IMG/VR virus record: IMGVR_UViG_3300028591_000116
DNA: 64,000 bases
Strand: one strand, 5' to 3'
DNA from: an uncultured virus (IMG/VR IMGVR_UViG_3300028591_000116)
Taxonomy: Duplodnaviria; Heunggongvirae; Uroviricota; Caudoviricetes
A program made the translations under genes and the position numbers. The first letter of the stretch is position 1. The number at the start of each line of letters is the position of its first letter. The notes under the pieces were generated by a model. It worked only from the letters and a program-made list of their open reading frames with translations, searched no databases and was not told the origin of the DNA. Positions 1 through 27,592 of the stretch are shown piece by piece.

Positions 1-13
1 TAAAAATATAATA

Positions 14-56
14 TTTTCGCCCCCCCCCCCCGATAATGAGGAGAGACGAAAGTTAT
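14..56 (-). repeat. G-run/pyrimidine hairpin repeat, copy 1 (inverted copy at 42456-42496); likely terminator
   Basis: ttttcg-C run-gataatgaggagagacgaaagttat is nearly the exact reverse complement of 42456-42496; lies right after the stop of the minus-strand ORF 59..229. Confidence 0.75.
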
Positions 57-58
57 TT

Positions 59-229
59 TTAATTGTTTCTTATAGTTAATGCTTTTATAGCACCAGCTGA
101 AGGATTCTTATTGGTTGATCTTGGTAATACTTGCATCTTAGTAACTTCGATTTTGCTAATTTTATTAGTTTTTTCAGAAGTCTTATTTTCTGTAGTATTA
201 CAATGACAAATTCGTTTTTTATTGTCCAT
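59..229 (-). CDS. small basic hypothetical protein (56 aa, MDNKKRICHCN...)
   Basis: Read by hand; ATG overlaps the end of 219..1679 (possible translational coupling); ends just before the hairpin. Confidence 0.45.
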   Translation of the reverse strand: MDNKKRICHCNTTENKTSEKTNKISKIEVTKMQVLPRSTNKNPSAGAIKALTIRNN

Positions 230-3377: not shown

Positions 3378-4274
3378 TTAGCCAAGACATTTTTCAACAG
3401 CTTTAATAGCAGATTCTTTTGAATTGAATACTGCCAAGAACTTAGCTGCGTGGATGAACGAGCATCCTTTAACTTCTTCCTGTTTTATAGAGATAGGATA
3501 AAGTTTAGAATCTACTGAATTGAGGTTCCAGCATCCTTTATCTCGGTTGCTTTCATTAATGGTATACTTGATATGTGTACCAATAAAGTTAGCAGCAGGA
3601 ATGAACTGATCAAGGATTACATAATCTGTAGAAGTTGCGTCGGCGATGAGTTTAGCCCTTTGTATATCATTGCCGTGTTTAACAGCAAATTCAATGATAG
3701 GTTTAAACTCAATCATTTTGCAAAGCTCTTCATATGTGTTATCCAGAAGATCAGAGTTGTTTGTGCTAGGCACATAACACTTTATTAAGAACGACAGTGT
3801 ATTTGGGAATTCCTGCTGACCAAAGTTGTCAGTTCTATCCATGTTCTGGATAAATGATTCATCCAAATACTTTGCAGCAATAGCCGCTGCTGCTTCATCG
3901 ATTGCTCCAAACATAAGACAAACTTCTTCACCAATGTATGCCCACAATCTTCCGAGAGCTGCATATTTTGATGTAGGTTTGTCTTCGTTTCTTAATGGAC
4001 AATCTGGCTGGTGATGATCAAATCTTCCTTTATTGATGTCGAATACCAGAGCATTTTCATCAGTGATACCGTGATCGCGAAGATACTGGTCTGTTACTCT
4101 GCGTATAGTCAAAGATTTATTTTCAAGTTTGTAATACTCTGTTTCTTTGAAAACGCATCTTAGTAAAGATCCACTCAATAATTCATCAGGATGAATTGTC
4201 CCAGCGTGTGTGTAAGCAGTGAAGCTATTCTCAGCAATGAGATCCATAATTTCTTTAATTCTTTTGTTAGCCAT
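3378..4274 (-). CDS. MYG1-family (DHH-like) metal-dependent hydrolase/exonuclease
   Basis: THAGTIHPDE, FD..GRFDHHQ, Y..LG.LW, D.TDN and FIHAAKF motifs typical of MYG1/UPF0160; GGAGG RBS. Confidence 0.8.
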   Translation of the reverse strand: MANKRIKEIMDLIAENSFTAYTHAGTIHPDELLSGSLLRCVFKETEYYKLENKSLTIRRVTDQYLRDHGITDENALVFDINKGRFDHHQPDCPLRNEDKPTSKYAALGRLWAYIGEEVCLMFGAIDEAAAAIAAKYLDESFIQNMDRTDNFGQQEFPNTLSFLIKCYVPSTNNSDLLDNTYEELCKMIEFKPIIEFAVKHGNDIQRAKLIADATSTDYVILDQFIPAANFIGTHIKYTINESNRDKGCWNLNSVDSKLYPISIKQEEVKGCSFIHAAKFLAVFNSKESAIKAVEKCLG

Positions 4275-4293
4275 AGTTCTAACCTCCAAAATA

Positions 4294-4307
4294 GTAATAT
4301 ATACGTC
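4294..4307 (-). promoter_or_regulatory. early-type phage promoter motif GACGTATATATTAC
   Basis: Contains TATATTAC (the phiKZ early consensus); related copies at 8246-8260(-), 9674-9687(-), 52839-52853(-), 54869-54884(+), 63719-63733(-). Confidence 0.65.
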
Positions 4308-4344
4308 ACAAGATATAGAAAATAAAATTACTTAAAACTACTTT

Positions 4345-5259
4345 ATGAGGTTTAATATGACAATATTTGGTGAAATAATAGGTGTTATTATAATCAGTTT
4401 AACTATATTCTTTTGTGTATTAGGAATAAAAAAACTGCATAATAAACACGTCAGTAAATTGATAGAACAGTCTAAAAGGAAAGATCCAATAACTTTTGAT
4501 CCTGAAAGGCTACATAATGCTTTAGACAATATTATTAAAAACCAGTTTACTAAAAATGAATTCTATGAGTATGAGAAATATGTAGAAGATCGTCAAGATG
4601 AATATGCTAAAAGATTCATAGCAGTTTTTTTATATAATATTCAGAAGGCTTTAGAAAACAAAGACATCGTATATTGTGACGGTATATATAAAATTTTCTT
4701 AAAACCTTTTTATTGCTCAAATGGGTTTGATTTAAGCAAGTCATTTGAAGAAATAATACATGAAAACGAAAAACACAATTTAAGGAGTGTTTATCGACAG
4801 GAATATTTTAATGTAACGACTTGGAGAGATCGATATATTAATTATAACAACTGGAACTCTGAAACTATAAAATATGTATCTGATGAATTGTGGAATAAAT
4901 ATAATATTCATATCTTAAATGTGAATGATTTTGAAATTGATTTTGTTAGAAGATCTGAATACAATAATTTGTGTCCAGATCTTCAAGAAACGTTACACTA
5001 TAATGATCCAGAACGATTCCCTGAAGTTGTTAAAGGATTTTTGGTAACAATATGGAAACAAACCGAATCGGATGGAAATGTGTTAGCTAAAGTTAAACGT
5101 GTTTTTTATGATAATAAAGAGTTTGCTGAAGCTTATCCTAATGGCATTTATCCTGAATACTCAATAGTTGAAAAGGTGTATGGAAATCAACGTGTGTTAA
5201 TACACCATTATAAAGATCTTAGCCCTAAAGGAGAATATAGAGAAAATGATGGAAATTAG
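4345..5259 (+). CDS. hypothetical protein with N-terminal transmembrane helix
   Basis: 304-aa ORF; hydrophobic N-terminus IIGVIIISLTIFFCVLGI. Confidence 0.7.
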   Translation: MRFNMTIFGEIIGVIIISLTIFFCVLGIKKLHNKHVSKLIEQSKRKDPITFDPERLHNALDNIIKNQFTKNEFYEYEKYVEDRQDEYAKRFIAVFLYNIQKALENKDIVYCDGIYKIFLKPFYCSNGFDLSKSFEEIIHENEKHNLRSVYRQEYFNVTTWRDRYINYNNWNSETIKYVSDELWNKYNIHILNVNDFEIDFVRRSEYNNLCPDLQETLHYNDPERFPEVVKGFLVTIWKQTESDGNVLAKVKRVFYDNKEFAEAYPNGIYPEYSIVEKVYGNQRVLIHHYKDLSPKGEYRENDGN

Positions 5260-5649: not shown

Positions 5650-6435
5650 ATGATTGAAATCATTAATACAGAAGTATTTGGCTTGGAAAGAGCAATTAAT
5701 GCTATTTCAAATTCATTCACAGTAGGTGAGATCGATACAACAGGTCCTATTAGTGCTAGGAAAGAAAGTATAGCGGCTTCTCTTGGAAACAATTTGGATC
5801 CACATCAGTCTCATGACGCATATCTTAAAGGAATCATCGTTCAGTTTGATATCAAATATCCACAGTATTGGACACCTGAATTCCAGCGATATCATTTTGC
5901 TGATATTATCATGAGTCAGAGTACAATGCATGCCTTGACTAAAATGCTCAAGAGCAATTATGATCCTTTTAACAAATATACTTCAGAAGAAAGTAAAGAA
6001 ATCGTTGAACGATTAGCCGCAAAGTATGAAAATGATCCTACGTATGAAAACTTTGTAGAACTCAGATCTAATCTTCCTGCCGGATTCGAAATGTATGAAA
6101 CTGTTACAACTAATTATCTTCAGCTTAAAACTATTTGGATCCAGAGACATAATCATAAACTTAAGGAAGATTGGGGAACATTCTGTACCTGGATCGAGAA
6201 TCTTCCTAGATTCAAAGAACTGTGTCTTACTAAGCTTCTTGCAGAAGAAGAACTGAAGGCTAATACAGCAAAGTATGATCCTAGAGATATCAAAGGGTAT
6301 AAAGAATATGATCATGCTCCAACAAAGCTTGCAGTTATGGAAGCTTATGCAGATTATATTAAAGGTAAAATGAAGTTCGACTACTATATGAACAATCATT
6401 ATAAACCTTTAGAAGATCTTCTGTCTGGTAAATAA
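5650..6435 (+). CDS. ThyX-fold-like phage protein (possible flavin-dependent thymidylate synthase relative)
   Basis: H..YLKGI.VQFDI..P.YW..EFQRYHF...SQSTMH and NYLQLKTI..QRHNHKL..W..FC.WI..LP resemble a phage ThyX-like family; canonical RHRx7S is absent. Confidence 0.45.
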   Translation: MIEIINTEVFGLERAINAISNSFTVGEIDTTGPISARKESIAASLGNNLDPHQSHDAYLKGIIVQFDIKYPQYWTPEFQRYHFADIIMSQSTMHALTKMLKSNYDPFNKYTSEESKEIVERLAAKYENDPTYENFVELRSNLPAGFEMYETVTTNYLQLKTIWIQRHNHKLKEDWGTFCTWIENLPRFKELCLTKLLAEEELKANTAKYDPRDIKGYKEYDHAPTKLAVMEAYADYIKGKMKFDYYMNNHYKPLEDLLSGK

Positions 6436-6440: not shown

Positions 6441-6467
6441 AATCTCTCCCTATAAAAGGGAGAGATT
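6441..6467 (+). terminator. intrinsic terminator
   Basis: aatctctccct-ataaa-agggagagatt directly after the stop of 5650..6435. Confidence 0.8.
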
Positions 6468-6471: not shown

Positions 6472-6673
6472 TCAACCACTACAACCACCAACTAAGCAAG
6501 TTCCTAAACATGTTCCAATACAGCGTATAACAAAACAACCAGAATTAGAACATGTTGCACCATCGATACATGTAGTCCCGCAATAGGAATGACATCCACT
6601 ACAAAATACTAAACATAAACTAGTGCAACTGTTAAGACATACATCATTCCCACAATTAGAAACACAACTTCCT
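6472..6673 (-). other. Cys-rich cassette 1 (66 aa GSCVSNCGNDVC...LVGGCSG*, 15 Cys), no start codon
   Basis: Translated by hand; starts AGGAAGTTGT, ends GTGGTTGTAGTGG-TTGA; in-frame TAA 8 codons upstream with no ATG/GTG/TTG in between. Confidence 0.85.
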
Positions 6674-6719
6674 TTATGGTTTAAAACAAACTTTTAAACT
6701 TTATTATGAGGTGTGTATT

Positions 6720-7906: not shown

Positions 7907-7950
7907 AATTCTTTTCTCCTATTTTATGGTATAAACTTTTTGGGATGAAT

Positions 7951-8178
7951 TTAAGCAGCCAGTTCAGTGAAGACTGGTACAGATCTTAAATATTTAGTAA
8001 TACTAGTAACTGAATATGAGTAGTAATTTGTACAATTATTAACGTCATAAACATTTACGTCTCGTACAATAATGTGATATTTGCTTATTGGTACAACGAC
8101 CATTCCAGCATAGTATTTTATCATATTATTGATCTCTTTTTCAGAGATAGTGTTCTTTGTGATTATAGATATGATCAT
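7951..8178 (-). CDS. small hypothetical protein, probably early
   Basis: GAGGAGG RBS; early-type motif upstream. Confidence 0.6.
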   Translation of the reverse strand: MIISIITKNTISEKEINNMIKYYAGMVVVPISKYHIIVRDVNVYDVNNCTNYYSYSVTSITKYLRSVPVFTELAA

Positions 8179-8242
8179 TTTTAAACCTCCTCAAGTTATA
8201 ATTTGATTTATCTATTTGGGTTATATCTTCGTCTATATTCAC

Positions 8243-8281
8243 TATTATAATATGAACGTGAAAGACTATGTTGCTTGAAAA
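8243..8281. repeat. 39-bp promoter-containing direct repeat (second copy 63716-63754)
   Basis: tattataatatgaacgtgaaag(a/t)ctatgttgcttgaaaa, one mismatch between copies. Confidence 0.85.
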
Positions 8282-9592: not shown

Positions 9593-9761
9593 ATGTACCC
9601 CTCCTAAATATTTTTTATTTAGGTCCCACCCTTATGCTTAGCACTGTAGAATAGTAACCCTTTCTCTATTAATAGAATATGTACGTCGAGACACTTGTTG
9701 TGTAAAAAACACATTTTTTGACATCATAATGATTTCGAACAAATGTATTGTGGAGGCTATT

Positions 9762-12700
9762 ATGTCCGAAACAAAGAAATATATATCAATTCCTACTATA
9801 GACGACTGTAAATTGCCTAATTCACTTATTCGTAAGTGTAGAGAGGTATATAGCCAATATGGTAAGTGGAAATTGTATGATCTTCTTAACGCGGATCTTA
9901 ATAATCATACTCTTTATAATAAAGAACAACGAGATAGATTTAAGAATATCGAATTAACTAGAAGATATCTTTATCTTTACAGAAAAGCCATGGCTGAAAC
10001 ACTCAGCTTTGCTTATAATGTAGATCAGACAGATCTTTTAGACGAAGAAGCTCTAGAATTTGATAATACAAACGTTTGTCCTTATTGTGGGAAACCTTTA
10101 ACTCTTTTAACACAGATAGGTTCTAAGAAAGGATTTCCTAAATCACACTTCAATGACGTTGTTAAAAAATACGATAAGCATGTGCTCTTTAATAAGGTAC
10201 CTGTTAGATCAGGCATTAATATTACTCTTTCTGAGTTTTTGGATAGCATAAATCCTGGTATTCAAGTAGGATATTCTTTTGCTTTCTGGTCATTCTATAA
10301 TTCTAATAAAACCAATCTTAGTGAATTATTAGTTAATCCAGATGATCCTACTATTAAAATTGATGAAGAAGATATTGCTGCTATGGATCCTGATTCAGTA
10401 TCAGCTTTACAACCTCAAGGTGATATCAATCTTTTTAAATTCTTGGATCGCAACAAGTATATTACAAACGAAGAAGGCGTTCAAGAATTAAATGAGAATT
10501 ATGGTAAGTTGACTGTTTATGCGGTATTTAAAAGCGATACCGACGTTGTGTATACTATAAACAGAATGGATCTTACAGTTTACGTAAATGATATTATCGA
10601 TATATATTCTTCATCACTGAAAGTCAACGATTCAAATGCATATAAACCTGCTTTTGAATTTTTAGGTGGAAACGACAAAGATATTCTGTATGATTTCAAT
10701 TATATGGTTATTGATACAGATTCTACATCGGATGTTCCATCTTATGTACCTGAAAACAATTATTCAGAAAATAGCGATAAGTTAGCAGTGGATTATGTCA
10801 ATGGTTCAAATATAGACGTTATTGTAGTTTATTCTGCTAAGAGCATGGACAAGAACGAATACACTTATGCTAACTGGGATATGACTATTAGGCAATTGGT
10901 TGTTCAGAACTTCAAAGAACCTGTTTTAAAAGACGTTGTATATCGTTCTAAGTTTGCAGAAGACGGAAAGACTATTATTCCTGAAGAAGGATCTGAAGAG
11001 GTTGTAGGTGTATATAACTTCTTCCATTGGTCTCTGTATGAAGAAGGAGATGTTTATATCCTTGATGATGATAACTCTAAGTCGTTATTAAGAAACATCA
11101 CTTCTATTCTTGATAATAACTCTATCACGGTATATGCTTTGTTTAAGTATGATATCAAAATCGGTACTTATGCTTATGATGACGATTGTTACAGTTCATT
11201 ATATCACCTTTATAAAGGCATAGATAAAGCGTATGCGGGATATACTGATCCCGATAACAGTTTTGTTTATGAATATAGAGTTAACGAATTATTTACTAGT
11301 TTAGTTACTGGTGAAGACGAACTTATCACTAAGAAAGATCATAAACGACTTCCATTAACTAGTAAGATAATGTATACAGCATCTGGTGATGCATATGAAT
11401 TACTTGATGTGAATTATGTCTACAAAGAAACTATTAATGGAAAAGAAACTGTTATTGATATTCCGTATAGAATAACTGCTGAAGAATACGAAGCCTTACC
11501 AGATGGATTATGTAGAGGTATTTATGATGAGCAACGAAGTAACGTTTCTTATCGTGGATATCCTGTTACTGCTGGAGCTGGTGGCGGCGGAATGCGTTAT
11601 GTTAAGAATAACAAAATCAGAGTTATTCGATATAATGCTATTAGTAATAACGGTGTATTAAGTGTAGAAAACGGTAGAAGAACTCAGCATTTCTCTAATA
11701 TGGGAGATACTGAGGTTGAACTCACATACACTACACCTGGTAATTTCGAAATTTGGTATTACTTACCTAGACATCTTTGGTACATCTATGATCCAGAGAT
11801 TGATGCTGATAGACTTAATGCTCTTCAGACAACTTGGGTATTTAACTCGGATCCTTTAAATGAAAGTAAATATAGAACTACTGAACCTGATTCTTCAGAA
11901 ATCGATCTTTATACTAGATTCGTTAGTGCTAAGATGATTACTCGAACTGAATATCTTACACTTACTTCTGAAAACAAACGTAATTGTGTTATTGATCGAA
12001 TTTATTACGAACATCAGTGGGAAAATGAAACTTGGAATGAAACCGATCAATCAGGTAGAGTAATCGCTACGCATAATTACGAAATACAGGAAATCTTTAA
12101 CTGTAAGAGTATTTCTGAATATAACACGCAGGTTGGTACTTCTGACCTATCATTCGGTGTAGATACTAAATCTTATGCCGATATGACTAGAGAAACATTC
12201 AGAGTGTACCAATATCATGTATCTCTTGATAAGAACGTTGATACTTCTTCCGATTACAATCAAGATAATGAGATATCTTACGTAGAAAATGCTTGTGGAT
12301 TAGAGTTCAATGGTGATACTTGGCTGTTCCCTATAACTCGATCTAATCGAGAAAATTTCTTGAAACTTATTCTCGGAGCAGATACACAAGTAGTTAGAAA
12401 TGATTCTAGATTCTTAAGAAACGGAAAAACAATTTTTCTTACTCCTGATATATCGGATATTATAAATATTCCTGAAAACGAAACTTCTGCTGAAAAAGAA
12501 GCAAGAGAAGCATTATTAGATTATACTAGACTTAAACCAACTGATAATACTGGCGTTAACCAGTTGTATTACATATTGACTGGATTATGGAAATGTGTAA
12601 TGTTCACTAACGGTTATAGATTGGTTTATAGAGCCGGTGATAGAAATTGGCCTACTACTGGTGTAGAATCTGATTATGTAGCTAATGCTTGTAATGGAGA

Positions 12701-15700
12701 AATTCAGTTAAAAGATTTGGTTTACAAATACAATGCATCATTGCGTTTGGATATAGAACACTCTATAGATGAAACTAATAATCTGTATTACGTTCTTTTC
12801 AAGAATATCACTTTAATTTCTCCTGGTGCTTCTAATTACACATTCTATAACTCTAGTGAAGAAAATGTCGTTCTTGAAGATACAGTTGCTAGTATTGCTT
12901 ATACAACTAAGACAGATATTATTCCATTTGATGATTCAGTTCAATATGTGAAGTATTCTGATAAAGCAACTACTACATACGGTTACGGTTTGTCTTACAT
13001 GACACATCTTACAAAAGATACACTTAGATCTTACTTCACTGAAGATGCAGATAATAAAGCAAGACAATTCTTTGAAGAATTGAAAGCTAAACTTATAGAT
13101 CCCGAACAACCTGATTATTATGAAGAAAAGGTTGACGGAAACGGAAATACTTATTACGAGAAGACTGATAGAAACTTGAGGTATTATGATCTTAAAGATG
13201 TATCATACGATGATCTCGATGATTATCATTTGATTTCTCCTATCGTATTTACTAAAGATATTGATGGAGAGAATTTCGATGCTAAGAAAGAATACTTTAA
13301 GTTAGTAGACGATCGTTATGTTCCATTGGGATTAACTGGATACACTGTTGATAACAAAAACTATAAGATAACTGGTACATCGACACAATCATACATCAAA
13401 GGAGTTTATATAAAGCTTTGGTGGGAAGATATTTATGATCTTGTTACTGAAACTACTTTGATTAACGGAATTCAGATTGAAAAACTTAAAGCTCCTGAAT
13501 ACAATCAGATGTTGTATAGACCTGAAACAGATGTTGAACTTCAACTTAGACGCAATGAGTATTATGATACTTATGGTGTAAATCCTGTAACTGAAGAGAC
13601 TAAAAATACCAAGGTTATCGTTGAATTCAGCGGTAAACAAATACCATTTAGTCCAGAAGACGGATCTGATAGGATATACGAAAATAGTGTATATTCTAAA
13701 TGGGGTTCTTCGGCTGTAACTCTCGATAATGAATATCTTATATCTGGTGGATATCCAAATCCTTCTAGTAATATACGTACTGATGATCCTAGTGATAATC
13801 AGTTTATCGAAGAGAAAACAGAATTCTATGCAAACACTAGATCAATGAGAAGCTTATCTAAATCTTCAGTTTCTTATTCTGGCGATACACAATCTGTTAT
13901 TGAAAATAAAGAAGATGATTCTAATAGTACAATAAAAGATACTGATGTAAAAGAATTGGATGACCGTATTTGGTGGAACCAATTCAGTAAACGTCTTTCT
14001 GGTGAAGCTAAGAATATATTCATAACCGACTATGGTGTAAACTTTAGTGGCTGGATATGGACTGGTTGGAAAGAAGGTTATATTATAGACGGAGACAATA
14101 TTTTAGTTGGTGGAAACACTAAGAAAGTAGAAGGCGGTCTCATTGAAGCTTATCCGTTTGAATCTTCTAATAAAGCAAACTATGTAACTCAAGGATTCCA
14201 GCGTATTCTTTTCCCTAAGGATGTAAACTCTACATTTGAAACAGAACAATATGACACGACTGATGATGGTGTAATTAATACACACAACAGAGTTGAAGGT
14301 GACGGTTTAAGTTCAGAATTAGTTAATAGAATTGATTCTGAAACAGGTGAACCTTTAAGACTGCTAAGATACTGTAGTAATCAGTCTTGTGAAATGTATC
14401 TTAAACGTCTGGATAAACGCAAGTGGTCTTTCAGAAACAGAGATGTTGGTGTTCAGACTACAAACAGTTTGAATTCACTATACAACATTATGGCTCTTGA
14501 CGAGTATCTGCTTCCTATTGGAAAAGACGGATCTTTCAAGAATTATAAAGCTACTAAATTTGCTGCTACTGAACCTGATAAAACAGCTAAATTTGGTATA
14601 TCAGATGTACCTAAGTTAGTAACTGTTGAACCAGTAGACGAAAACAGTGTTGAATTCGGTGGTTGGACGCTTGACAAATATCCGTGGCATTACGGTGAAG
14701 ATGAAGCTACTAAACAGAAATATAATGAATACGTTCGTTATTATCTCCATCGTGGTGGTAATGCCCTTCCTGACCCATTCAGATTCGAATTTGAATGGAA
14801 GTATGCTACGAATGAATTCTCTAATACAAAAATGAGTGGTTACGGTAACGGTTCTAATTTAGACGATACCACAACTCAGCTTGATACAATAAAGCAAATA
14901 AGTCATAGAACTAAGAATAGAATAGTTCCTATGGAAACTAGATCTATTCCTGAATATCAGCAAAAATATCTGGATGTATTGTTCAATACTTTTGAAAACG
15001 TATTCATACAACTTAACACTAATTCTTCTCCTTATTCTTTATTCAGCCAAGAAGAGATTTATGTTATGAATGAGATTTTAATAGATCTATTCACATTCAA
15101 CAAAAACTCTGATTCAGAACACATGATGGACTTCGTTAAGTTTAAACTTGATATAGTTACTCTCATGAATGACATGACTGAATACGAATTTAATCTTGCT
15201 AATTATTGGCACGATGGAGATTACGAATATAACAAACAGTTACTTGAAGATTTCTATTCTAGAACACACGGATCTAGTTCAGTTGAGGGATTAAAAGATC
15301 TGTCAGATGTTGAATTTGAAAAAGCAATACTTGGTACTGATTTGAATGAAGACAATCCACAGACTATATTCCCATTCTATTCTTGTAAACTCACTAATGA
15401 TACTTGGGATAGATATGAAAATCATCCTGTTAGACGTATCATCATTAAACGAGAATACACGCCAACAAATAATATGACTGAACGTGAGATCATAAATACT
15501 GTGTGGGGTGGAGATCCTAGTTATACAGGATATAAGTTTATGGGTTGGTATAAAGATCAGCTTACATTTAATAAATATTATCCTGATACTAGTGAAGGAA
15601 CCACAGTAATTGCGGCAGGTCATAAATTCGTTGCTTATCTTAGATTTGATGCTGGAACTTATGTAAATGAAGAATTCGTTGCAGGAACTAACAATATTCT

Positions 15701-18080
15701 TGGAACGTTTGAAAAAGCATTAATCACTTTCGAAGAAGGAAACGACATTTATCTTTTGTTTGACGTAGAAGATATTCCTTCTAGAATATGGTATATTGGC
15801 GAAGATACAATTAAAGATAGTTTAAAACTTAGACTTTCTGAACTTCATGAAAAACTCATGTTGCCTACAGAGTTCATGTGTAGCTTGTTTAATTTTATTA
15901 TTGCTCCAAAGCGATACAATATAGTTGAATCTGAACGTGGCGAAATCACTAGTTTACTGGTTGATTCTGGTGTTATTACTACACCTTCTAGCAAAAATGT
16001 ATTGAGTATAACACGACCAGCAGATTATATTAGTTACAAAGATGCCGTAATTTCTAAATCTTGGAATATGGCTACTAATGAGGAAACTGGTAAGAGCGTT
16101 AAGGAACAGTATTATATTATCTACAATGATAATAAATTTGATGCTTATTCTTTCTTTAATGAGGGATGGATCAAAGACGTATATGGTGAAGAAAATGCCT
16201 CTGCTAAATTCCCACTGTTACGTGATACTGAAAACCCTATTACTCACAACTCTTCAGGTAACAATACTCTGTTGAATATCATACCGTTCTCTACTAAGAA
16301 ATACGAATCTGCGTTAGCTTTAGTTTACGATAAAGGTATATTACTTGTAAATCTTACAGGCATTCATACTAAGACTGAAGATACACAGTGGATTAAACTC
16401 GAAGATGGAAGTAAGATCTTATCTCCTGAAAAATTGTTTAGTTCTGCTTCTCTTTCTATAGTAGATTGTAAACTAGATGAGTATAACGGAAGCAATAACC
16501 TTATAATCATTTCAGACAACTCACAAATAGCTTCTTTTGATCTTGATGAAGAAAAGATTTATAATCCTAACGTTAATTATTTAGCGGGAGTAGGTTATGA
16601 AAAACTTAATTCTACTAGAGATAAACTTCCTATAACGTTTAAGAAAACTGATGGTGTTAATGGAAGATCTACTACTTCTTTAAGAAAAGGTAGAGCTATA
16701 ACTGTTGTTGGAGAATCAGCTGCTACACTTATAGGCGAAAATGAAGAAAGATATGTTGAAAAACGTGTAGGTTTAACTATATTAGCAGGAACTCTTAGTC
16801 CTAATCCTTCTGGTTACGACGGAGATCCTTGGATTCTTATGTCTAAATATGCTAATTCTGGTTTACCTGCTTCTCTTTCTGATATCAATTACGAAAAGTT
16901 GTTAGATGCTGATAAAGACAAATACAAAATACATCCTAAACTCACAGTACAGTATGCTTGGGATAATAGTCCATTAAAGAATTATTCTCCTGATCCTACT
17001 ATCGATTACGAGTATATAGATGTGTATACAGATGAGTTTGATCAGTATACTGAAGGTACTTTCAAGATTTATCATAATGGTAATCTTATTAGTAAGAACG
17101 TTTATTTTAGTTATACTGACGAATTAAGAAAAGAATGTAAGATCTACAAGATAATTTCTATCAATTATTCATTTGTACGATTGTCGTTCTCTAATACTGG
17201 TACTGGATTCTACGATGAAGAATTCGAAGCTAGACTTACTAAAGAAAAACCATTGTACGCTTTCTATTATAAAACTGGTGTTGAAGTAGATGAGCACTAT
17301 GGTTACAAAATACAAACCACAGAAAATATAGTTGATGGCAGAGATACAATTATGTCTGATGCTTTCGACGAATATTTAAAAACTGATGGTAACAATTCAA
17401 GTTCTACGGACTTCAATAAAGTAAAAGAAATACCCGGTTGGAAAATAGTAAATTCTTTCACAGATTATACCAAGAATGTTGTAGATAAACTCGATATTAT
17501 TGAAAATATCAAAAAAATATTCCCTATTGAAGGATACGTTAACAGTTCCACAGGAAAATACGTTTATCAATACATCATTTCCGACGGATATATTTCACAG
17601 TTGATTCAGTGGGTTGATGGAGAAATTCAAATACTCAGTGAATATAATTTTGACGATAATAATGAACTCTTATACGTTAAAAATATAGACAGTGACTTGT
17701 CTACATATATGATCTTTAAAAATCAAAGAATAGTTAAACTTGAGACATACGAGTATGTTCCAAACGAAATTTCTATTCCTAGAATGGATAAGATTAGTTT
17801 CTTTGTTAAGACTGATAATCCTAATGATGAAACAAGTATATCTTACGTAACAGAAGATAAACGATTAGTCAATGTCTTATTGAATAGTTCTATTGTTGAA
17901 GCTGACAACCCAACAATTTATAATGAGAAGTCGTTAAAAGACGCATTTGAGAATATCACGTCGTTAATTAACTGTGAGATTCAACAGACTGAACCTTTTA
18001 AATATGTGTCTAACTATAGACGTTGGCATGTGTTACCTGGAAATGATAAGTCTAAACTTATTGAAGCTCAAATAAACTAA
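9762..18080 (+). CDS. giant (~2770 aa) probable virion/tail-associated protein
   Basis: Uninterrupted ORF; GGAGG before ATG 9762; late-type motif 9720-9732; several 'F.xW...TVYA.FK' repeat-like segments; no catalytic motif recognised. Confidence 0.65.
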   Translation: MSETKKYISIPTIDDCKLPNSLIRKCREVYSQYGKWKLYDLLNADLNNHTLYNKEQRDRFKNIELTRRYLYLYRKAMAETLSFAYNVDQTDLLDEEALEFDNTNVCPYCGKPLTLLTQIGSKKGFPKSHFNDVVKKYDKHVLFNKVPVRSGINITLSEFLDSINPGIQVGYSFAFWSFYNSNKTNLSELLVNPDDPTIKIDEEDIAAMDPDSVSALQPQGDINLFKFLDRNKYITNEEGVQELNENYGKLTVYAVFKSDTDVVYTINRMDLTVYVNDIIDIYSSSLKVNDSNAYKPAFEFLGGNDKDILYDFNYMVIDTDSTSDVPSYVPENNYSENSDKLAVDYVNGSNIDVIVVYSAKSMDKNEYTYANWDMTIRQLVVQNFKEPVLKDVVYRSKFAEDGKTIIPEEGSEEVVGVYNFFHWSLYEEGDVYILDDDNSKSLLRNITSILDNNSITVYALFKYDIKIGTYAYDDDCYSSLYHLYKGIDKAYAGYTDPDNSFVYEYRVNELFTSLVTGEDELITKKDHKRLPLTSKIMYTASGDAYELLDVNYVYKETINGKETVIDIPYRITAEEYEALPDGLCRGIYDEQRSNVSYRGYPVTAGAGGGGMRYVKNNKIRVIRYNAISNNGVLSVENGRRTQHFSNMGDTEVELTYTTPGNFEIWYYLPRHLWYIYDPEIDADRLNALQTTWVFNSDPLNESKYRTTEPDSSEIDLYTRFVSAKMITRTEYLTLTSENKRNCVIDRIYYEHQWENETWNETDQSGRVIATHNYEIQEIFNCKSISEYNTQVGTSDLSFGVDTKSYADMTRETFRVYQYHVSLDKNVDTSSDYNQDNEISYVENACGLEFNGDTWLFPITRSNRENFLKLILGADTQVVRNDSRFLRNGKTIFLTPDISDIINIPENETSAEKEAREALLDYTRLKPTDNTGVNQLYYILTGLWKCVMFTNGYRLVYRAGDRNWPTTGVESDYVANACNGEIQLKDLVYKYNASLRLDIEHSIDETNNLYYVLFKNITLISPGASNYTFYNSSEENVVLEDTVASIAYTTKTDIIPFDDSVQYVKYSDKATTTYGYGLSYMTHLTKDTLRSYFTEDADNKARQFFEELKAKLIDPEQPDYYEEKVDGNGNTYYEKTDRNLRYYDLKDVSYDDLDDYHLISPIVFTKDIDGENFDAKKEYFKLVDDRYVPLGLTGYTVDNKNYKITGTSTQSYIKGVYIKLWWEDIYDLVTETTLINGIQIEKLKAPEYNQMLYRPETDVELQLRRNEYYDTYGVNPVTEETKNTKVIVEFSGKQIPFSPEDGSDRIYENSVYSKWGSSAVTLDNEYLISGGYPNPSSNIRTDDPSDNQFIEEKTEFYANTRSMRSLSKSSVSYSGDTQSVIENKEDDSNSTIKDTDVKELDDRIWWNQFSKRLSGEAKNIFITDYGVNFSGWIWTGWKEGYIIDGDNILVGGNTKKVEGGLIEAYPFESSNKANYVTQGFQRILFPKDVNSTFETEQYDTTDDGVINTHNRVEGDGLSSELVNRIDSETGEPLRLLRYCSNQSCEMYLKRLDKRKWSFRNRDVGVQTTNSLNSLYNIMALDEYLLPIGKDGSFKNYKATKFAATEPDKTAKFGISDVPKLVTVEPVDENSVEFGGWTLDKYPWHYGEDEATKQKYNEYVRYYLHRGGNALPDPFRFEFEWKYATNEFSNTKMSGYGNGSNLDDTTTQLDTIKQISHRTKNRIVPMETRSIPEYQQKYLDVLFNTFENVFIQLNTNSSPYSLFSQEEIYVMNEILIDLFTFNKNSDSEHMMDFVKFKLDIVTLMNDMTEYEFNLANYWHDGDYEYNKQLLEDFYSRTHGSSSVEGLKDLSDVEFEKAILGTDLNEDNPQTIFPFYSCKLTNDTWDRYENHPVRRIIIKREYTPTNNMTEREIINTVWGGDPSYTGYKFMGWYKDQLTFNKYYPDTSEGTTVIAAGHKFVAYLRFDAGTYVNEEFVAGTNNILGTFEKALITFEEGNDIYLLFDVEDIPSRIWYIGEDTIKDSLKLRLSELHEKLMLPTEFMCSLFNFIIAPKRYNIVESERGEITSLLVDSGVITTPSSKNVLSITRPADYISYKDAVISKSWNMATNEETGKSVKEQYYIIYNDNKFDAYSFFNEGWIKDVYGEENASAKFPLLRDTENPITHNSSGNNTLLNIIPFSTKKYESALALVYDKGILLVNLTGIHTKTEDTQWIKLEDGSKILSPEKLFSSASLSIVDCKLDEYNGSNNLIIISDNSQIASFDLDEEKIYNPNVNYLAGVGYEKLNSTRDKLPITFKKTDGVNGRSTTSLRKGRAITVVGESAATLIGENEERYVEKRVGLTILAGTLSPNPSGYDGDPWILMSKYANSGLPASLSDINYEKLLDADKDKYKIHPKLTVQYAWDNSPLKNYSPDPTIDYEYIDVYTDEFDQYTEGTFKIYHNGNLISKNVYFSYTDELRKECKIYKIISINYSFVRLSFSNTGTGFYDEEFEARLTKEKPLYAFYYKTGVEVDEHYGYKIQTTENIVDGRDTIMSDAFDEYLKTDGNNSSSTDFNKVKEIPGWKIVNSFTDYTKNVVDKLDIIENIKKIFPIEGYVNSSTGKYVYQYIISDGYISQLIQWVDGEIQILSEYNFDDNNELLYVKNIDSDLSTYMIFKNQRIVKLETYEYVPNEISIPRMDKISFFVKTDNPNDETSISYVTEDKRLVNVLLNSSIVEADNPTIYNEKSLKDAFENITSLINCEIQQTEPFKYVSNYRRWHVLPGNDKSKLIEAQIN

Positions 18081-19016: not shown

Positions 19017-21032
19017 ATGCAGATTAAACCTAGTAAAGTTAAATCTACATCTAATGACAAAATTGCCATTTTAAAAGATGGAAGAAAAATCGTAATGGAA
19101 ATCGACACTAAAGATTTGTTGAAAGATAAAGGTGCTAATTATTACGCTTTATTCACTGGTGCTAACGCATATTTTTTCGATAACCCAATCAATACAATTC
19201 ACAACTGTGTGTTAGTTAAGTGTGGTAAGAATTATTACATTCTTACAATTCCAATGCTGATATTGGATCTTATCTTCTGGAGAGCAAACGTGGTGTTCAA
19301 CATTCCTATAACTGCAAACGAAATGTACAGTTATGCCAAGGAACACTTAAATAAAAATACATTCAACAATATCACAGAACACGTTACTAAAATGCTCGTA
19401 GATTCACAGCAGAAAGTAACACCAGAAATCAGTAGATGTTTGGCTGATATCAAGAATAACTTATCTCGTTTCTCACAGAACTTCTCTTCTGTAAAATGTA
19501 ACACTCTGTCTATCTGGAGTATATTACAGTTTAAGAATAGAAATAAAGAGTTTAATACTTTATTTAATACAACTCTTGATCCTTCTAAAACTATTAAAGA
19601 GACAGAAATTATTGTAAAAGATTGTGAAAAGAGATTGACTAAGGTTATTGCAGAAGATGATCTTAACTGTTTTAAACCATACGTAATGTCTGGACGTCTT
19701 AAGAACGCACAGCTTGCAAAGGTTGTATGTACTGTAGGTACACGTCCTGATATCGATAAGACAATTATTCCTAGACCTATTACAAAAGGTTATATCCATG
19801 GTCTTCAGAATGTATCTGAATACTTTATGGAAACAATTACCGCACGCGACGCTATGATGACTAAAAATGATAACTTGCCACGTTCAGGATTCTTGTCTAG
19901 AAAGATCAATCGTCTTACTTCAGATATCGATATTAATTATAACGTAAAGGATTGTGGAAATACAAAATATCTCAATTACTTTATTGAAAACGCAGATTAT
20001 CTTGATATGATTGATGGAAAGTATATGCTGGATGAAAAGACTGGTAAACTTCGTGTAGTAAGTTACGAAAAAGATAAAGATTTGATAGGAACAACTATTA
20101 AACTTCGTACATTTATTACATGTAACTGTAAAGACGGCGTTTGTACTACATGTGTTGGTACAGTATCTACACGTCTTAAAGGAACTCGTCTTGGTACACT
20201 TCCACCAATCAAATGTATTAACCCTATGTCACAGAAAGCATTGTCTGCTAAACATGACTTGGGTACAAAGTCAATTGATATCACAAACGAAGCTTTGAGC
20301 AAATACTTCCATTCTGACGGTATGGATTTCTTCCTTAAGCCAGAATACTCATCTCAAAGAGATTTGTATTTAGTAATACAGTCAGATTCAGTTGAAGATT
20401 TGATTAACTCAAATGTTGATACTTCAGACGATGAAGTTGACACTGTTATCGCATTGGATTACATAGCGGTTAGAGATCATGGCATTGACTATGAAATCGA
20501 AAATGAAGGTATGCGTATTGCGTTGTCCGATGAACTGCTTGCAAATAAGAAGTTGTTCACTGAAGATGAAGAAAACTCTGATAATATTTTGATTCCATTG
20601 AACAAACTTGAATCTTCTGAAGATCCATTGTTCTATGCAATACTTGATACTGAAGAGATTTCAAAATATCTTAATCAGTTGATTGGAACTATTGATAGAA
20701 ATACAGTTAACAGATATCAGACATATGAAGAATTGATGTCTGCTATGATAAGAATTATCTATGAATCCGGATTTGTTGATAATATTATTCACTTTGAATC
20801 TATTGCTAAAAGTATGATTCGTTCAAAGAAAAATAAGACACTAAAACCAGATTGGTCACAGGATAAAGTCGAATATCAGATTCTTAAGATATCAGATGCT
20901 ATTATGAATAAAGATTTATATACAGCAATTGAATATCAGAATCTGCGTAACTTGTTCAAAACAGCTTCAATTGCTAAGCGAGCAGGAGTTTCGCTTTACG
21001 ATCCATTCTTTAGAGTGTCTAAAGATAGATAA
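19017..21032 (+). CDS. phage multisubunit RNA polymerase beta' C-terminal subunit (phiKZ gp74-like, probably non-virion RNAP)
   Basis: Bridge-helix region GL..SEYF...AR...SG.LSRK..RL, DCG, Zn site R..ITC...GVC..C.G, trigger-loop-like NPMSQKALSAKH; followed by a helicase as in phiKZ gp74-gp75. Confidence 0.9.
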   Translation: MQIKPSKVKSTSNDKIAILKDGRKIVMEIDTKDLLKDKGANYYALFTGANAYFFDNPINTIHNCVLVKCGKNYYILTIPMLILDLIFWRANVVFNIPITANEMYSYAKEHLNKNTFNNITEHVTKMLVDSQQKVTPEISRCLADIKNNLSRFSQNFSSVKCNTLSIWSILQFKNRNKEFNTLFNTTLDPSKTIKETEIIVKDCEKRLTKVIAEDDLNCFKPYVMSGRLKNAQLAKVVCTVGTRPDIDKTIIPRPITKGYIHGLQNVSEYFMETITARDAMMTKNDNLPRSGFLSRKINRLTSDIDINYNVKDCGNTKYLNYFIENADYLDMIDGKYMLDEKTGKLRVVSYEKDKDLIGTTIKLRTFITCNCKDGVCTTCVGTVSTRLKGTRLGTLPPIKCINPMSQKALSAKHDLGTKSIDITNEALSKYFHSDGMDFFLKPEYSSQRDLYLVIQSDSVEDLINSNVDTSDDEVDTVIALDYIAVRDHGIDYEIENEGMRIALSDELLANKKLFTEDEENSDNILIPLNKLESSEDPLFYAILDTEEISKYLNQLIGTIDRNTVNRYQTYEELMSAMIRIIYESGFVDNIIHFESIAKSMIRSKKNKTLKPDWSQDKVEYQILKISDAIMNKDLYTAIEYQNLRNLFKTASIAKRAGVSLYDPFFRVSKDR

Positions 21033-21049
21033 TTTTGAGGTAGTCTACT

Positions 21050-22558
21050 ATGAATGATTTTGGAAAAATGAAAGTTCTAGTTAGACCATCAGCAATTATA
21101 TTAACACCATACAGAAAGAAGCAGTGTTATGCTATTGAAAAAATGTTGGCTGTATGGGATATGAATCAGAATAGATACACATCGTTCTTGTATGAATTTG
21201 AAGCAGAAGATGAAAAGATTGATCCTAATTATGGAGTTCTTAGAATTCCTAAAGGTTTAGGAATAGATACTGTAAAATCTGCTTTGGAAGGTGCAAGTAT
21301 TGATTTCATAGTAATTGATCAGACTGAAGATTACAAACAGTTTAGAAAGATTAATATTGAAATGAAACTCCCGCCAAGAAATCAGATTCAGGAAGACAGT
21401 GTTAAATTCTTAAGAGATTCGTTGTATCATCAGCATCAAGCATTCTTAGCTCTTGATGTTGGTATGGGTAAAACATATTGTACAACTTATCATATTGCTG
21501 ATTCTAGAAAGGCTACTTTAATTGTATCATATAACCTGGCTTATCAGTGGGAAGATCGTATGCAGGAATATAGCGATCTTGTCAGTGGTAATGAAAATGG
21601 CGGTTTGGTTAATATAGTAGGAACCCAGTATTTTGAAAACTGTGTTTCTGGTAAGATAAAACCTAAAGCCGGTGTGTATTTGACTACTATAGGCACATTG
21701 CATTCGTATCAAAGACTTCATGGTAAAGGAAGCTTACAAGATATTGTAAATGCTCTTGGTATAGGAATCAAAGTTTTTGATGAAGCGCATAACAGATATC
21801 TGTTGTTTAATTCAATAGACTTGAATATGCAAACTGACGAAACAATATATTTGAGTGCAACTCCTGGTCGAAGTATAAAAACTGAAGACAGGATGTTTAC
21901 TAAGATATATAGAAATGTACCAGCCTATGGTTCATACACAGCACAATATAACGATTTCTATGTAATAAAATACATCACATTTGACAGTCATTCCAACGTA
22001 GAAGACAGAGCATCATTTAAGACTCCTAGAGGATTAAGCTCTTTGAAATATATGAGATACATGTTTGACAAGTGGGGCGAAAACTTGCTTAAACTCGTAA
22101 TGCTTTATTCTGAGCCTATTCTTAGTAAAAACCCAAAAGGAAAACTTTTAATAGTAACAGATTGGGTTAGAGATATTGAATGGACTAAACAATGGTTAAA
22201 CAAACATTATCCCCAGTATTCAGTTGGAACGTATTGTCAATTGGTAAAGAATAAAGAATTGAAAGAAAAGGAATTGGATAATCGTATCATCATTGGTACA
22301 ATAGGGAGTATGCAAAACGGAAAAGACATTACTGATCTTCAAATTATCTTTCCTTTAACTACTTTCAGTTCATCAATTGTTACAAGACAGCTGCTTGGAC
22401 GTCTTAGACCTTTAAAAGATAAAAACGTGTATTATTTCGATATCGCCGATTTAAGTGTATCTTCTATCATGCAACAGCGTAGAGAACGTGATTCAGTATT
22501 ACGAGCCAGAGCTGCTGGAGAAATAGAAAATGACAGAATTGATTTGGATCGTATATAA
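21050..22558 (+). CDS. superfamily 2 (DExH) helicase
   Basis: GMGKT (Walker A), FDEAH, SAT and QLLGRLR motifs. Confidence 0.9.
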   Translation: MNDFGKMKVLVRPSAIILTPYRKKQCYAIEKMLAVWDMNQNRYTSFLYEFEAEDEKIDPNYGVLRIPKGLGIDTVKSALEGASIDFIVIDQTEDYKQFRKINIEMKLPPRNQIQEDSVKFLRDSLYHQHQAFLALDVGMGKTYCTTYHIADSRKATLIVSYNLAYQWEDRMQEYSDLVSGNENGGLVNIVGTQYFENCVSGKIKPKAGVYLTTIGTLHSYQRLHGKGSLQDIVNALGIGIKVFDEAHNRYLLFNSIDLNMQTDETIYLSATPGRSIKTEDRMFTKIYRNVPAYGSYTAQYNDFYVIKYITFDSHSNVEDRASFKTPRGLSSLKYMRYMFDKWGENLLKLVMLYSEPILSKNPKGKLLIVTDWVRDIEWTKQWLNKHYPQYSVGTYCQLVKNKELKEKELDNRIIIGTIGSMQNGKDITDLQIIFPLTTFSSSIVTRQLLGRLRPLKDKNVYYFDIADLSVSSIMQQRRERDSVLRARAAGEIENDRIDLDRI

Positions 22559-22581
22559 TATTTTGTTTAGGGAGAAAGAAC

Positions 22582-23298
22582 ATGCTTGATTTTGAAAATC
22601 TGGACAAAGTATCAAATATAGTTTGTCGAATCAATTCTACATTGGTTATAAAACACGTAGTTGAATTAAAGAATAATCGTCCTAGTAAGAAAAACGATAA
22701 ATTTTCTGTTTACGGTTTCTATTATGAGAACAAAAATCCTATCAGTAAATATAAACCAGTTGGAGATGCTGGTGGTAATCTTATGTTTACTAGTAATGGT
22801 TATATCTCTATTGAGAATAAGAAAAATGTTGTCAGAAATGAAACTGTGTTGAGTGAAACCTTAAAAGTAAAAGTAGTTTTAATGGACACACCTCAGTTGT
22901 TAGCCGTATTAGACACGGTTACAAACTGGCTTACAGCACAATGTGAAGATGTGTTCATGAATGACGAAATAGGTCACCCAATAAAAATTATCAATCCGAT
23001 GTTGAAGATAACTTGCCCGTTAATGTTAGAACCTCTAGGAATCACATTCAAACCGTGTATCGTAGAGGATAACGTCGGAACGAAATACCAAGGTGTTGCG
23101 ATGGGCAACAGTTCTAAAGGAGAGATCTGTAATTTCACAGCTACTGAGTTTATAGTGTTTAAGAATATGTTGACTTACGCATTAAACAACCTTTACACTA
23201 ACAATATGCAGTTGGCTGCTCATGCTATGCAATACTGTACATACAAAAACTTAATGGAGGTTTTAAACAGAAATGCTCAAAGAAACAAACCTCAATGA
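22582..23298 (+). CDS. hypothetical protein
   Basis: 238-aa ORF with RBS in the RNAP/helicase operon. Confidence 0.75.
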   Translation: MLDFENLDKVSNIVCRINSTLVIKHVVELKNNRPSKKNDKFSVYGFYYENKNPISKYKPVGDAGGNLMFTSNGYISIENKKNVVRNETVLSETLKVKVVLMDTPQLLAVLDTVTNWLTAQCEDVFMNDEIGHPIKIINPMLKITCPLMLEPLGITFKPCIVEDNVGTKYQGVAMGNSSKGEICNFTATEFIVFKNMLTYALNNLYTNNMQLAAHAMQYCTYKNLMEVLNRNAQRNKPQ

Positions 23299-23842
23299 TG
23301 ATGGGACTATCTGGATTAAAACTACACCTGATGGCAAACCTTTAATTGTCGGACAGAATTACTGTTTTGTTGGACAGTGGTGGGTTTATGCAGGAGATTT
23401 TGAAAGTTCCGATCAAGTTCCTAACATCAATTGTTGTTATACTATAGGCAATCAAATAAAAATACGCAGAGGAATACCTATGGGAACACCACAAGTTAGA
23501 GAAAAGATTAAACGTGTCCGAAAGGACGATAGTAGACCAATCAATACAGATATTTCTGATCAGGATGGTCCGCTTTTGATTATGATGAAAGAAGCATTAG
23601 CTAAAGAAGGAGTTACTAAAAAGAGATTCAAAGATTTCTACGAAAGTGATTCTGACTTTAACAACTGTCTTCGTCACATCGAAACACAAAATACTCTTAG
23701 CTGGAGTAGGTTTGATGACTTAAGAGATAGAATGGGATTGGAATGTGAAGTAACTCTTAAACATAAAGACGGTTCTATTGTAAGTCATTTTGATTCAGCA
23801 AATCCAGTTGTACCAGAACCTATTACAAAGAAAAAGAAATAG
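23273..23842 (+). CDS. hypothetical protein
   Basis: 189-aa ORF; GGAGG RBS. Confidence 0.75.
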   Translation: MLKETNLNDDGTIWIKTTPDGKPLIVGQNYCFVGQWWVYAGDFESSDQVPNINCCYTIGNQIKIRRGIPMGTPQVREKIKRVRKDDSRPINTDISDQDGPLLIMMKEALAKEGVTKKRFKDFYESDSDFNNCLRHIETQNTLSWSRFDDLRDRMGLECEVTLKHKDGSIVSHFDSANPVVPEPITKKKK

Positions 23843-23868
23843 AAATACATTAAGGAGGTAATTCTATT

Positions 23869-24399
23869 ATGGGAAACGAAAGCAAAGCAAAAGTCACTAT
23901 CAATCCAGAAATTACACCGACAGAAGAACATGCTGTTGGTTATACTGCTCCTGTAACAACTTCAGCAGAATTGGATACTGTTGAGAAACAGCAGGTAATG
24001 ATAGCTATACGTGAGTTTCAGAAAACAATAGATCCTATTGTTGAAATCATTAAAGCTCAAGTATACGCATGTAGCAACGCTGAAGCTAGTTACAAATCTG
24101 CATTAAATGATCTTGAAAACACAATTCAGTGTCATGGAGATGCAGCAAGAGCATTGGTTTCTAAATACGTTGATCTTGAAAACGCACATACTTTTGACAT
24201 GATGTCTCAGACAGTCGTTAAGACTTTAGTTGAACTTGGATATTACCATGGAGACAAACCTTGTCAGTTCAACACAGATACTCACGAATTGGTAGCTAAA
24301 CCGTTAACTGAAAAAGACAAAGTCATCAGCACTAAGAAAGTGGATATCAAGATTACTGAAAAGATTATTCCTAAGTTCACTACTTTGGAATACAACTAA
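23869..24399 (+). CDS. hypothetical protein
   Basis: AAGGAGG RBS; hairpin after the stop. Confidence 0.75.
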   Translation: MGNESKAKVTINPEITPTEEHAVGYTAPVTTSAELDTVEKQQVMIAIREFQKTIDPIVEIIKAQVYACSNAEASYKSALNDLENTIQCHGDAARALVSKYVDLENAHTFDMMSQTVVKTLVELGYYHGDKPCQFNTDTHELVAKPLTEKDKVISTKKVDIKITEKIIPKFTTLEYN

Positions 24400-24448
24400 T
24401 TAGTTGAGGTGAGAGGGAATCGTTAGATTCCCTTTCTTTTTTATAATT

Positions 24449-25390: not shown

Positions 25391-25422
25391 TTTCGTCTAA
25401 ACTACATTTATTGGAATAAATT

Positions 25423-27196: not shown

Positions 27197-27277
27197 TGAA
27201 TGTGCTTCTGATTTAATAACACGGCTTGGAATTCTTTCTAAGTAGTCAGAACTATCATTTTTGCTCCTTTTGTTTTT

Positions 27278-27304: not shown

Positions 27305-27312
27305 CTTTTATT

Positions 27313-27544: not shown

Positions 27545-27592
27545 ATAATTTATAATAGATGAAACTTTTATATGATATAAAAGGAGTTTATT

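Follow-up and report, generated by a model that had tools for sequence, protein, structure and literature searches.

In the loci described by Poole et al. (2011, PMC3150448), orphan cdiA-CT/rhs-CT modules lack translation initiation signals and begin at the motif (VENN) that demarcates the variable C-terminus, and in such bacterial polymorphic toxin loci an orphan can become joined to the main gene through rearrangement. Here we analyzed a 64,000-nucleotide (nt) stretch of an uncultured virus of the Caudoviricetes (IMG/VR record IMGVR_UViG_3300028591_000116; the whole stretch is referred to as the window), in which a Cys-rich reading frame on the minus strand, cassette E1 (6475-6672), has no start codon and belongs to a family of similar start-less cassettes whose organization, by analogy, comes closest to those orphan modules. 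We propose with moderate confidence that E1 serves as a silent donor, supplying a C-terminal module to a Cys-rich gene, to which it would be joined by recombination at in-frame junction motifs.

Like the cdiA-CT/rhs-CT modules covered by that account, the phage cassettes come without initiation signals (none of 18 has a start codon with a Shine-Dalgarno [SD] word), a junction motif stands at the cassette start (VENN there; S-G-S-C / AGGAAGTTGT here), and the full-length homologues P0006 and P0008 diverge abruptly past the motif. Unlike them, the cassettes belong to a phage and not to a bacterium, encode Cys-rich CxxxC repeats with no recognised toxin, and carry a conserved motif at the 3′ end as well; where the orphans described follow the main gene in tandem, each with an immunity gene, the phage cassettes are scattered between unrelated genes on both strands of the 64 kb, with no paired immunity-like open reading frame (ORF). 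Pfam and NCBIfam gave no match for the cassettes or P0006, and hence no membership in CdiA, Rhs, or toxin-domain families.

Start-less, promoter-less donors with short flanking repeats, together with one expressed gene that holds a donor copy, also make up the Neisseria pilE/pilS and Borrelia vlsE systems. The phage shares with these the start-less donors with short conserved ends and an expressed gene bearing an identical 104-nt copy of one cassette, E2, in another assembly; it differs in being a phage genome with dispersed cassettes and in that contigs of the possible source run lack the second branch expected of a pasted copy. The site-specific inversion switches of C-terminal gene segments, such as the Mu Gin/G segment, P1 Cin, the R64 shufflon, and Mycoplasma pulmonis vsa, resemble the present case in their start-less 3′ segments, constant 5′ part, short in-frame site, and use of both orientations, whereas the phage segments are unclustered, 4-21 kb apart, and have a conserved core of 10-12 nt. 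A scan of 84 ORFs, drawn from the window and from four metagenome loci with related cassettes (L003, L006, L011, and L021; "the 84 ORFs" below), turned up no domain of a resolvase, invertase, tyrosine recombinase, or integrase. A diversity-generating retroelement (DGR) was considered and rejected, as no reverse transcriptase was found among these ORFs, the E2 copy is 100% identical, and the cassettes are ~43% identical to each other.

The long C-x3-C runs of the cassettes are also like those of the CXXX-repeat targets of radical S-adenosylmethionine (SAM) enzymes (TIGR04114, TIGR04117, and PF27846, tSAM_targ_Cxxx_rpt). A precomputed annotation places PF27846 on P0010, a homologue of the main gene, and the family also appears in the Atlas neighbour clusters of P0008 (score 0.88), which is a lead only. 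Hidden Markov models (HMMs) of the CXXX families did not match E1-E4 or P0006 at E values up to 1, no radical SAM maturase was found among the 84 ORFs, and the bacterial members, unlike the cassettes, have their own start and signal peptide (e.g., the L025 protein, TIGR04117 at 4e-10). A literature search found no paper describing such phage cassettes.

Cassette E1 is an open Cys-rich frame without a start codon

The minus strand reads from an in-frame TAA (6696-6694) through K F V L N H K into GSCVSNCGNDVC...LVGGCSG and ends with TGA (6474-6472). This stop-to-stop frame has 73 sense codons (6475-6693), with the TAA closing it 7 codons before GSC, and the conserved module GSC..GCSG within it has 66 (6475-6672); the length of 66 codons given for the frame in an earlier note, made from the sequence alone, is therefore correct for the module and not for the stop-to-stop frame. 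The module contains 15 Cys codons (12 TGT and 3 TGC), and no in-frame ATG, GTG, or TTG occurs either upstream of GSC or within the frame, which bears out that note's description of a start-less, Cys-rich frame on the minus strand. The 5′ junction motif AGGAAGTTGT (GGA AGT TGT, encoding G S C; 6664-6673, minus strand) is identical in all 19 cassettes examined, and the TGA stop comes right after the motif at the 3′ junction, GGTGGTTGTAGTGG (encoding G G C S G; 6476-6488, minus strand). When the 198-nt core was subjected to 20000 mononucleotide shuffles, the frame was open in 1.1% of them and 15 Cys codons were never reached. T occupies 64% of the third codon positions. E1 lacks the start codon with a ribosome-binding site that an ordinary small protein-coding gene would have.

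A Cys-rich gene of a related locus ends in 104 nt identical to cassette E2

The gene for P0006, with which L021 ends (16559-17560), has GGAGG 7 nt before its ATG and a promoter-like site, TTGACA-17-TATAAG, upstream. Its product consists of an N-domain of ~155 amino acids (aa) ending SKPLAALYNEVRQVVVD, ~145 aa of CxxxC repeats, and then a cassette, the junction being ...GGC TCT TGT TCA|GGA AGT TGT AGA GAT.... The last 104 nt of this gene are 100% identical, in frame, to window positions 27313-27416 in cassette E2 (27314-27544, plus strand), and the identity begins with the first base (A) of AGGAAGTTGT, which in E2 is position 27313. All other matches of the window to L003, L006, L011, and L021, in DNA or in protein ORFs of at least 80 aa, were short regulatory repeats only.

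A second full-length protein, P0008 (394 aa), shares ~86% identity with P0006 as far as CSGSC, beyond which it continues into an unrelated 64-aa cassette ending GGGCSG; past CSGSC, only the Cys and a few other residues of the two proteins align, with long gaps. Homologues of the N-domain were found in P0009-P0011 (38-44% identity) and in a gene of the distant relative G001 (47%), the latter having a tandem Cys-rich region of >440 aa. Together, these proteins define a family in phages in which the N-domain is conserved and the Cys-rich tail varies. The joined form in L021 and the swapped cassette in P0008 support the view, put forward in the earlier note, that such segments work after joining to another gene; the fusion observed is that of E2 and not of E1, and the note's stronger wording, that they work only in this way, as well as any given mechanism of joining, goes beyond what these sequences record. 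An AlphaFold2 model of P0008 built on a 7-row alignment had a mean predicted local distance difference test score (pLDDT) of 39, and an Atlas search with E1 returned no usable match.

The missing start and the conserved ends are common to the cassette family

A six-frame scan of the window revealed 5 Cys-rich start-less cassettes, E1 to E5, with orientations alternating as - + - + - and a spacing of 4-21 kb. All five have AGGAAGTTGT (G S C) at the start and GTTGTAGTGG (C S G) at the end. The former motif was observed 6 times in the window versus 0.21 expected, 5 of these being cassette starts, and the latter 5 times versus 0.06 expected, every copy at a cassette. The sixth copy of AGGAAGTTGT (38742-38751, minus strand) is antisense within the gene 37625-38917, with no Cys-rich frame behind it. 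In addition to E1 and E2, the family in the window comprises E3 (40288-40491, minus strand), which like E1 is antisense between two plus strand genes; E4 (44757-44978, plus strand), whose relative is the database protein P0002; and E5 (63742-63939, minus strand), in which a 1-nt deletion before the 3′ motif shifts the last codons, while its relative P0005 keeps GGGCSG. The interiors of the other window cassettes are 29-35% identical to that of E1 upon alignment, with a median identity of 43% over 15 cassettes, and the probability of an open frame in shuffles is 0.2-0.9% for each of the four. We also considered the +1 frame as a second coding frame; it is open in E2 and E3, but contains 2-3 stops in E1, E4, and E5, and was therefore set aside as a by-product of composition.

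Together with 13 cassettes from L003, L006, L011, L020, L021, and the IMG/VR record G002, the window brings the number of free-standing cassettes to 18. None of them has an in-frame ATG, GTG, or TTG preceded by an SD-like word, 8 of the 18 have no in-frame start upstream at all, and 3 have a stop directly before the cassette; in the control, under lenient scoring, a start with an SD word was seen in 34 of the 36 window ORFs that reach 150 aa or more. Where in-frame ATGs occur, at E2 and E4, they sit in the loops of upstream terminator hairpins. The missing start is a property of the whole cassette family.

The ends of the cassettes were then compared with the codon usage of their interiors in 14 free-standing cassettes, which are paralogous copies and hence not fully independent. 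GGA AGT TGT, with a probability of 0.087 per cassette, was present in 14/14, and GGT TGT AGT, with a probability of 0.092, in 13/14, the exception being E5 with its 1-nt deletion. Since these synonymous codons are invariant at such a low per-cassette probability, the cassette ends are conserved as DNA and not only as protein. The 3′ motif takes the form GGTTGTAGTGG (G-C-S-G) in the window cassettes and in four metagenome loci, and a lineage-specific form, GGGTGTAGTT, in 3 of the 4 cassettes of G002, the cassette at 6201 having another end.

No in-frame stop was found across the free cassettes, whose interiors are ~43% identical and in which TGC is used as a synonym of TGT. One pair, L006/L020 (73% aa identity over 67 codons), was close enough for estimating nonsynonymous (dN) and synonymous (dS) substitution rates, yielding a dS of 0.50, a dN of 0.14, and a dN/dS of 0.29; the flanks of the two copies are unrelated. 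Frame preservation and dN/dS had been suggested as checks in the earlier note, and with a dN/dS of 0.29 in this pair and frames open in 18/18 cassettes, simple pseudogenisation is unlikely. The cassettes are a real, non-random, and selected feature.

Cassettes are located in intergenic gaps

All 18 free cassettes sit in intergenic gaps. Both neighbours of E1 are on the plus strand (5650-6435, and 6711/6725-7418, a phosphoesterase, phrog_547), and E1 is therefore antisense within its gap. A hairpin at 6441-6467 (11 bp, -17.5 kcal/mol on either strand) is common to the 3′ ends of the gene 5650-6435 and of E1 and, on the plus strand, has TTGTTTTC after it; it was not called by the consensus terminator scan. 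Just upstream of E1 is an AT-only hairpin, GTTTAAAA-GTTTG-TTTTAAAC (6679-6699, minus strand). The 46-nt flank of E1 with its motif has an 89% identical copy in G002, where it precedes a different cassette.

An adjoining terminator hairpin was confirmed by folding for E1-E4, and for the remaining cassettes, inspection of the flanks by eye indicates a site bounded by a terminator on one side and by the next promoter-like repeat on the other, in either orientation. The same-strand cassettes (such as E2 and E4) start 10-12 nt past the terminator hairpin, directly behind its T-tract, and are followed by a TTTGACGTTTATATTATAATAATGGAG-type promoter-like repeat; the antisense ones (such as E1 and E3) have a stop, then an A-run, and then the hairpin shared with the neighbour. 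A promoter-like repeat containing TATTATAATATGAACGTGAAAG lies upstream of genes at 8239-8281, 52832-52874, and 63712-63754 and, inverted, at 54849-54903; it has near-identical copies in L011 and L021, forms the 3′ flank of same-strand cassettes, and is probably a phage-specific promoter.

Three other readings of the flanks were examined and rejected. The upstream hairpin, taken as a conserved RNA element, is present at 5/5 window cassettes, but in 3/5 it folds no better than shuffles. A lipoprotein with an LLGSC lipobox was discounted because the "signal" residues are encoded by the upstream terminator T-tract and the ATGs of E2 and E4 are in hairpin loops, and further because both these residues and the ATG are absent from E1, L003, L006, and others. 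Stop-codon read-through from the upstream gene does not apply to E1 and E3, whose neighbours are on the opposite strand, nor to E2, which is separated from that gene by several stops.

Free-standing relatives in metagenomes and databases

A scan of metagenomes with a two-motif DNA pattern returned 26 loci, of which 5 were real cassette loci (L003, L006, L011, L020, and L021; guanine-plus-cytosine [GC] content, 0.31-0.35), 2 were bacterial, and 19 were due to chance. The record G002 (27 kb) contributed 4 further cassettes with the same 5′ motif. In IMG/VR, the two-motif pattern gave 0 matches, a loose 5′ pattern gave at least 118 loci with L079 as the one real case, and the 3′ motif with an A-run gave 8 loci, none of them real; scans of GTDB genomes found no main-gene relative and 9 pattern loci, none with a phage cassette. 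L022, L025, and L033 were excluded as cassettes: they encode a 181-aa protein of bacteria that combines CXXX repeats (TIGR04117, 4e-10) with a twin-arginine-like leader and that matched the two-motif pattern by chance of the G-S-C / G-C-S-G codons, and the record of L033 is a Segatella metagenome-assembled genome.

A HMMER search of 1.84 billion representatives gave 5 matches, namely cassette fragments of 3 relatives, E5 of the window itself, and an unrelated repeat protein, P0004; when the cassette profile was used to look for longer fused proteins, none emerged. The three relatives are database fragments called from internal starts. P0002 is identical to E4 at 64/73 residues and keeps every Cys, P0003 to E3 at 42/52 with one Cys lost (C to Y), and P0005 to E5 at 34/50 with every Cys kept and the end GGGCSG. 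Because gene callers miss start-less frames, the family is invisible in annotated phage genomes, and databases show its members as internal-start fragments.

Several relatives have unusual surroundings. In L006 (10002-11024), a cassette is open in frame into the next gene, which encodes a secreted DNA/RNA non-specific endonuclease (PF01223, 1.5e-45) that has a signal peptide and an ATG of its own. In L021 (15951-16433, plus strand), a cassette of double length (395 nt, 28 Cys) immediately precedes the promoter of the P0006 gene. In G002 (L173), a start-less 269-aa ORF (13738-14544, plus strand) stands behind a cassette-type junction composed of a terminator, a T-tract, and CTTTTTGTTCAGGAAGTTGTG; it is a 5′-truncated paralogue of full-length homing-endonuclease-like genes (G002 3648-4841, G002 10939-12531, and G001 L032 1-1269) with a PD-(D/E)xK-type motif, and may represent a link between cassette junctions and endonuclease traffic.

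Contig evidence around E2

Contigs of runs X1, X2, X4, and X17 were compared over window positions 26000-45999, a range that covers E2-E4 and not E1. Among the Logan contigs of the possible source run, one ends at 27342 and the next starts at 27313 and runs unbroken to 28843; in a graph of 31-mers, this marks an extra incoming branch at precisely the first base of E2. The same contigs show no such break at E3 or E4. In the strain of X4 (~95% identical), E2, E3, and E4 are in place and contiguous with both flanks. A contig from an RNA run (26002-27303) ends at the 5′ edge of E2, which is a weak hint from a strain 93-95% alike, and none of the RNA pieces listed covers E2, E3, or E4, a hint equally weak because it comes from contigs only. 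Gaps in the RNA cover, as well as joints at 27322/27531 and 40301/40480 (with sides of 22-27 nt), were considered as deletions and dismissed, as they represent other cassettes with similar flanks.

Proposed explanation and its alternatives

According to the explanation that we favor, E1 would be a stored "orphan cassette," i.e., a C-terminal coding module of a polymorphic cysteine-rich-repeat protein gene. The expressed gene would provide the promoter, SD sequence, ATG, ~155-aa N-domain, and a constant CxxxC region ending ...C-S-G-S-C, and its last ~66 codons would be a cassette bounded by T.AGGAAGTTGT and GGTTGTAGTGG. Many alternative cassettes devoid of translation signals would be kept in intergenic gaps genome-wide, on either strand, and recombination at the conserved junctions would place one of them behind the constant part, giving the protein a new C-terminus. 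The use of E1 itself and exchange within one genome are what we infer, and the enzymology could involve either short-homology recombination or a site-specific enzyme, with either copy-in or reciprocal exchange.

Several observations weigh against this explanation. The free and fused copies of E2 come from different assemblies, and a fused form has been seen for E2 and never for E1. There is no second branch at the 3′ end of E2, contrary to a simple copy pasted into a distant site; because this branch is absent, reciprocal rearrangement or co-existing arrangements or strains would fit better than gene conversion. The cassette of P0008 is close to none of the 18 stored cassettes (28/67 residues at best), and the distant relative G001 has no dispersed cassettes, with none beside its homologue of the baseplate gene located after E2. 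Pfam revealed no recombinase, integrase, or reverse transcriptase in the 84 ORFs, and the junction motifs are just 10-14 nt. Moreover, the strand of E1 carries a sigma-70-like TTGAAA-18-CATAAT upstream of the cassette, although matches of this kind are no commoner than in shuffles.

Among the alternatives, it appears unlikely that the cassettes are relics or selfish duplicates, i.e., 3′ fragments of the Cys-rich gene that have no present function and perhaps moved with homing-endonuclease traffic, in which case the fused and free copies of E2 would merely record an old rearrangement. Such an origin agrees with the unrelated contexts of cassettes across contigs, including the L006/L020 flanks, with the start-less, 5′-truncated homing-endonuclease-like ORF behind the same junction CTTTTTGTTCAGGAAGTTGTG in G002, with the 1-nt deletion at the 3′ motif of E5, and with the failure to find a dedicated enzyme among the 84 ORFs. 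It is difficult to reconcile with 18/18 free cassettes remaining open despite interiors ~43% identical (the chance in the window being 0.2-1.1% each), with the dN/dS of 0.29, with Cys positions kept in relatives except for one Cys-to-Tyr change in P0003, and with end motifs that are both invariant at synonymous sites. The same coding constraint would be expected if the cassettes were independent genes for small Cys-rich peptides, initiated non-canonically via the AGGA-containing motif, with the long gene as a fused paralogue. In keeping with this, AGGAAG, which is invariant, looks like an SD word, every cassette occupies a separate intergenic slot, a stop plus hairpin closes many of them, a promoter-like site precedes E1, and the repeat type is like that of CXXX-repeat radical-SAM targets. 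We nevertheless consider independent peptides quite improbable, for 8/18 cassettes have no in-frame start and 3/18 directly follow a stop, the TTG and GTG codons that overlap the motif belong to other frames, which in 4/5 window cassettes reach a stop within 0-12 codons, the 84 ORFs include no radical SAM gene, and E1-E4 match no CXXX-family HMM at E values up to 1; the RNA contig that ends before E2 points, weakly, in the same direction.

Joining at the RNA level, with cassette transcripts attached to the end of the constant-part mRNA by ligation or trans-splicing, could account for 5′ junctions resembling a Y-rich tract followed by AG|G, and L003 has an RNA ligase gene. It is very improbable, however, in view of the fused form being present in a DNA metagenome contig, of the window containing no Rfam intron or ribozyme, and of no RNA contig having been seen over the cassettes.

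Returning to the donor module explanation, a wider version of it, which we put forward only tentatively and with considerable doubt, is that of programmed variation, in which at least 15 silent modules genome-wide are moved behind one expressed Cys-rich gene via the 10-14-nt in-frame junction. Such exchange, possibly reciprocal, may invert or relocate entire transcription blocks, and this would account for both the location of cassettes at transcription-unit borders and their alternating orientation. It would amount to an "antigenic variation" or shufflon-like device operating genome-wide in a bacterial virus. Provided that the cassettes are donors, they would offer phages a route to diversify one protein that is distinct from DGRs and from invertible tail-fibre segments, and the Cys-rich-repeat protein would be marked as a target of diversifying pressure, be it from the host surface, host defence, or phage-phage conflict. 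This protein family is found in other phages too, and the system would be a concrete instance, in a jumbo phage of the rumen that is uncultured, of modules exchanged in frame at a short motif.

The window and its phage

The window is part of an uncultured jumbo phage from the ruminant gut. It has a GC content of 33% and encodes a terminase, tail tube, head-tail joining, and baseplate proteins and an NAD-dependent ligase, as well as a piece of RNA polymerase beta/beta′ whose best relatives are from the Bacillus phages PBS1 and AR9 (28% identity). Parts of a 10-kb stretch of the window are present in at least 20 runs from 13 studies (sheep, goat, or bovine gut, or plain metagenome). Among INPHARED phages, neither the E1 locus nor 19017-27000 had a DNA match, and the E2 peptide had none by tblastn; Rfam and tRNA scans of the window gave no matches.

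A 2783-aa ORF (9729-18080, plus strand) had no PHROG match and Pfam matches that were sub-threshold only. The ORF for the terminase large subunit (61145-63394, plus strand; 749 aa) matched PHROG in two stretches, 1-195 and 427-548, and this split suggests an insertion between the ATPase and nuclease parts. Finally, a 44-nt inverted repeat with a run of ten C or ten G (CCCCCCCCCCGATAATGAGGAGAGACGAAAGTT...) occurs at window positions 1-65 and 42446-42508, 42.4 kb apart, and in similar copies at 13950-14050 of L006 and at 7911-7965 and 10868-10919 of L011. Since the L011 contig ends, and the window starts, inside this element, it seems to break assemblies.

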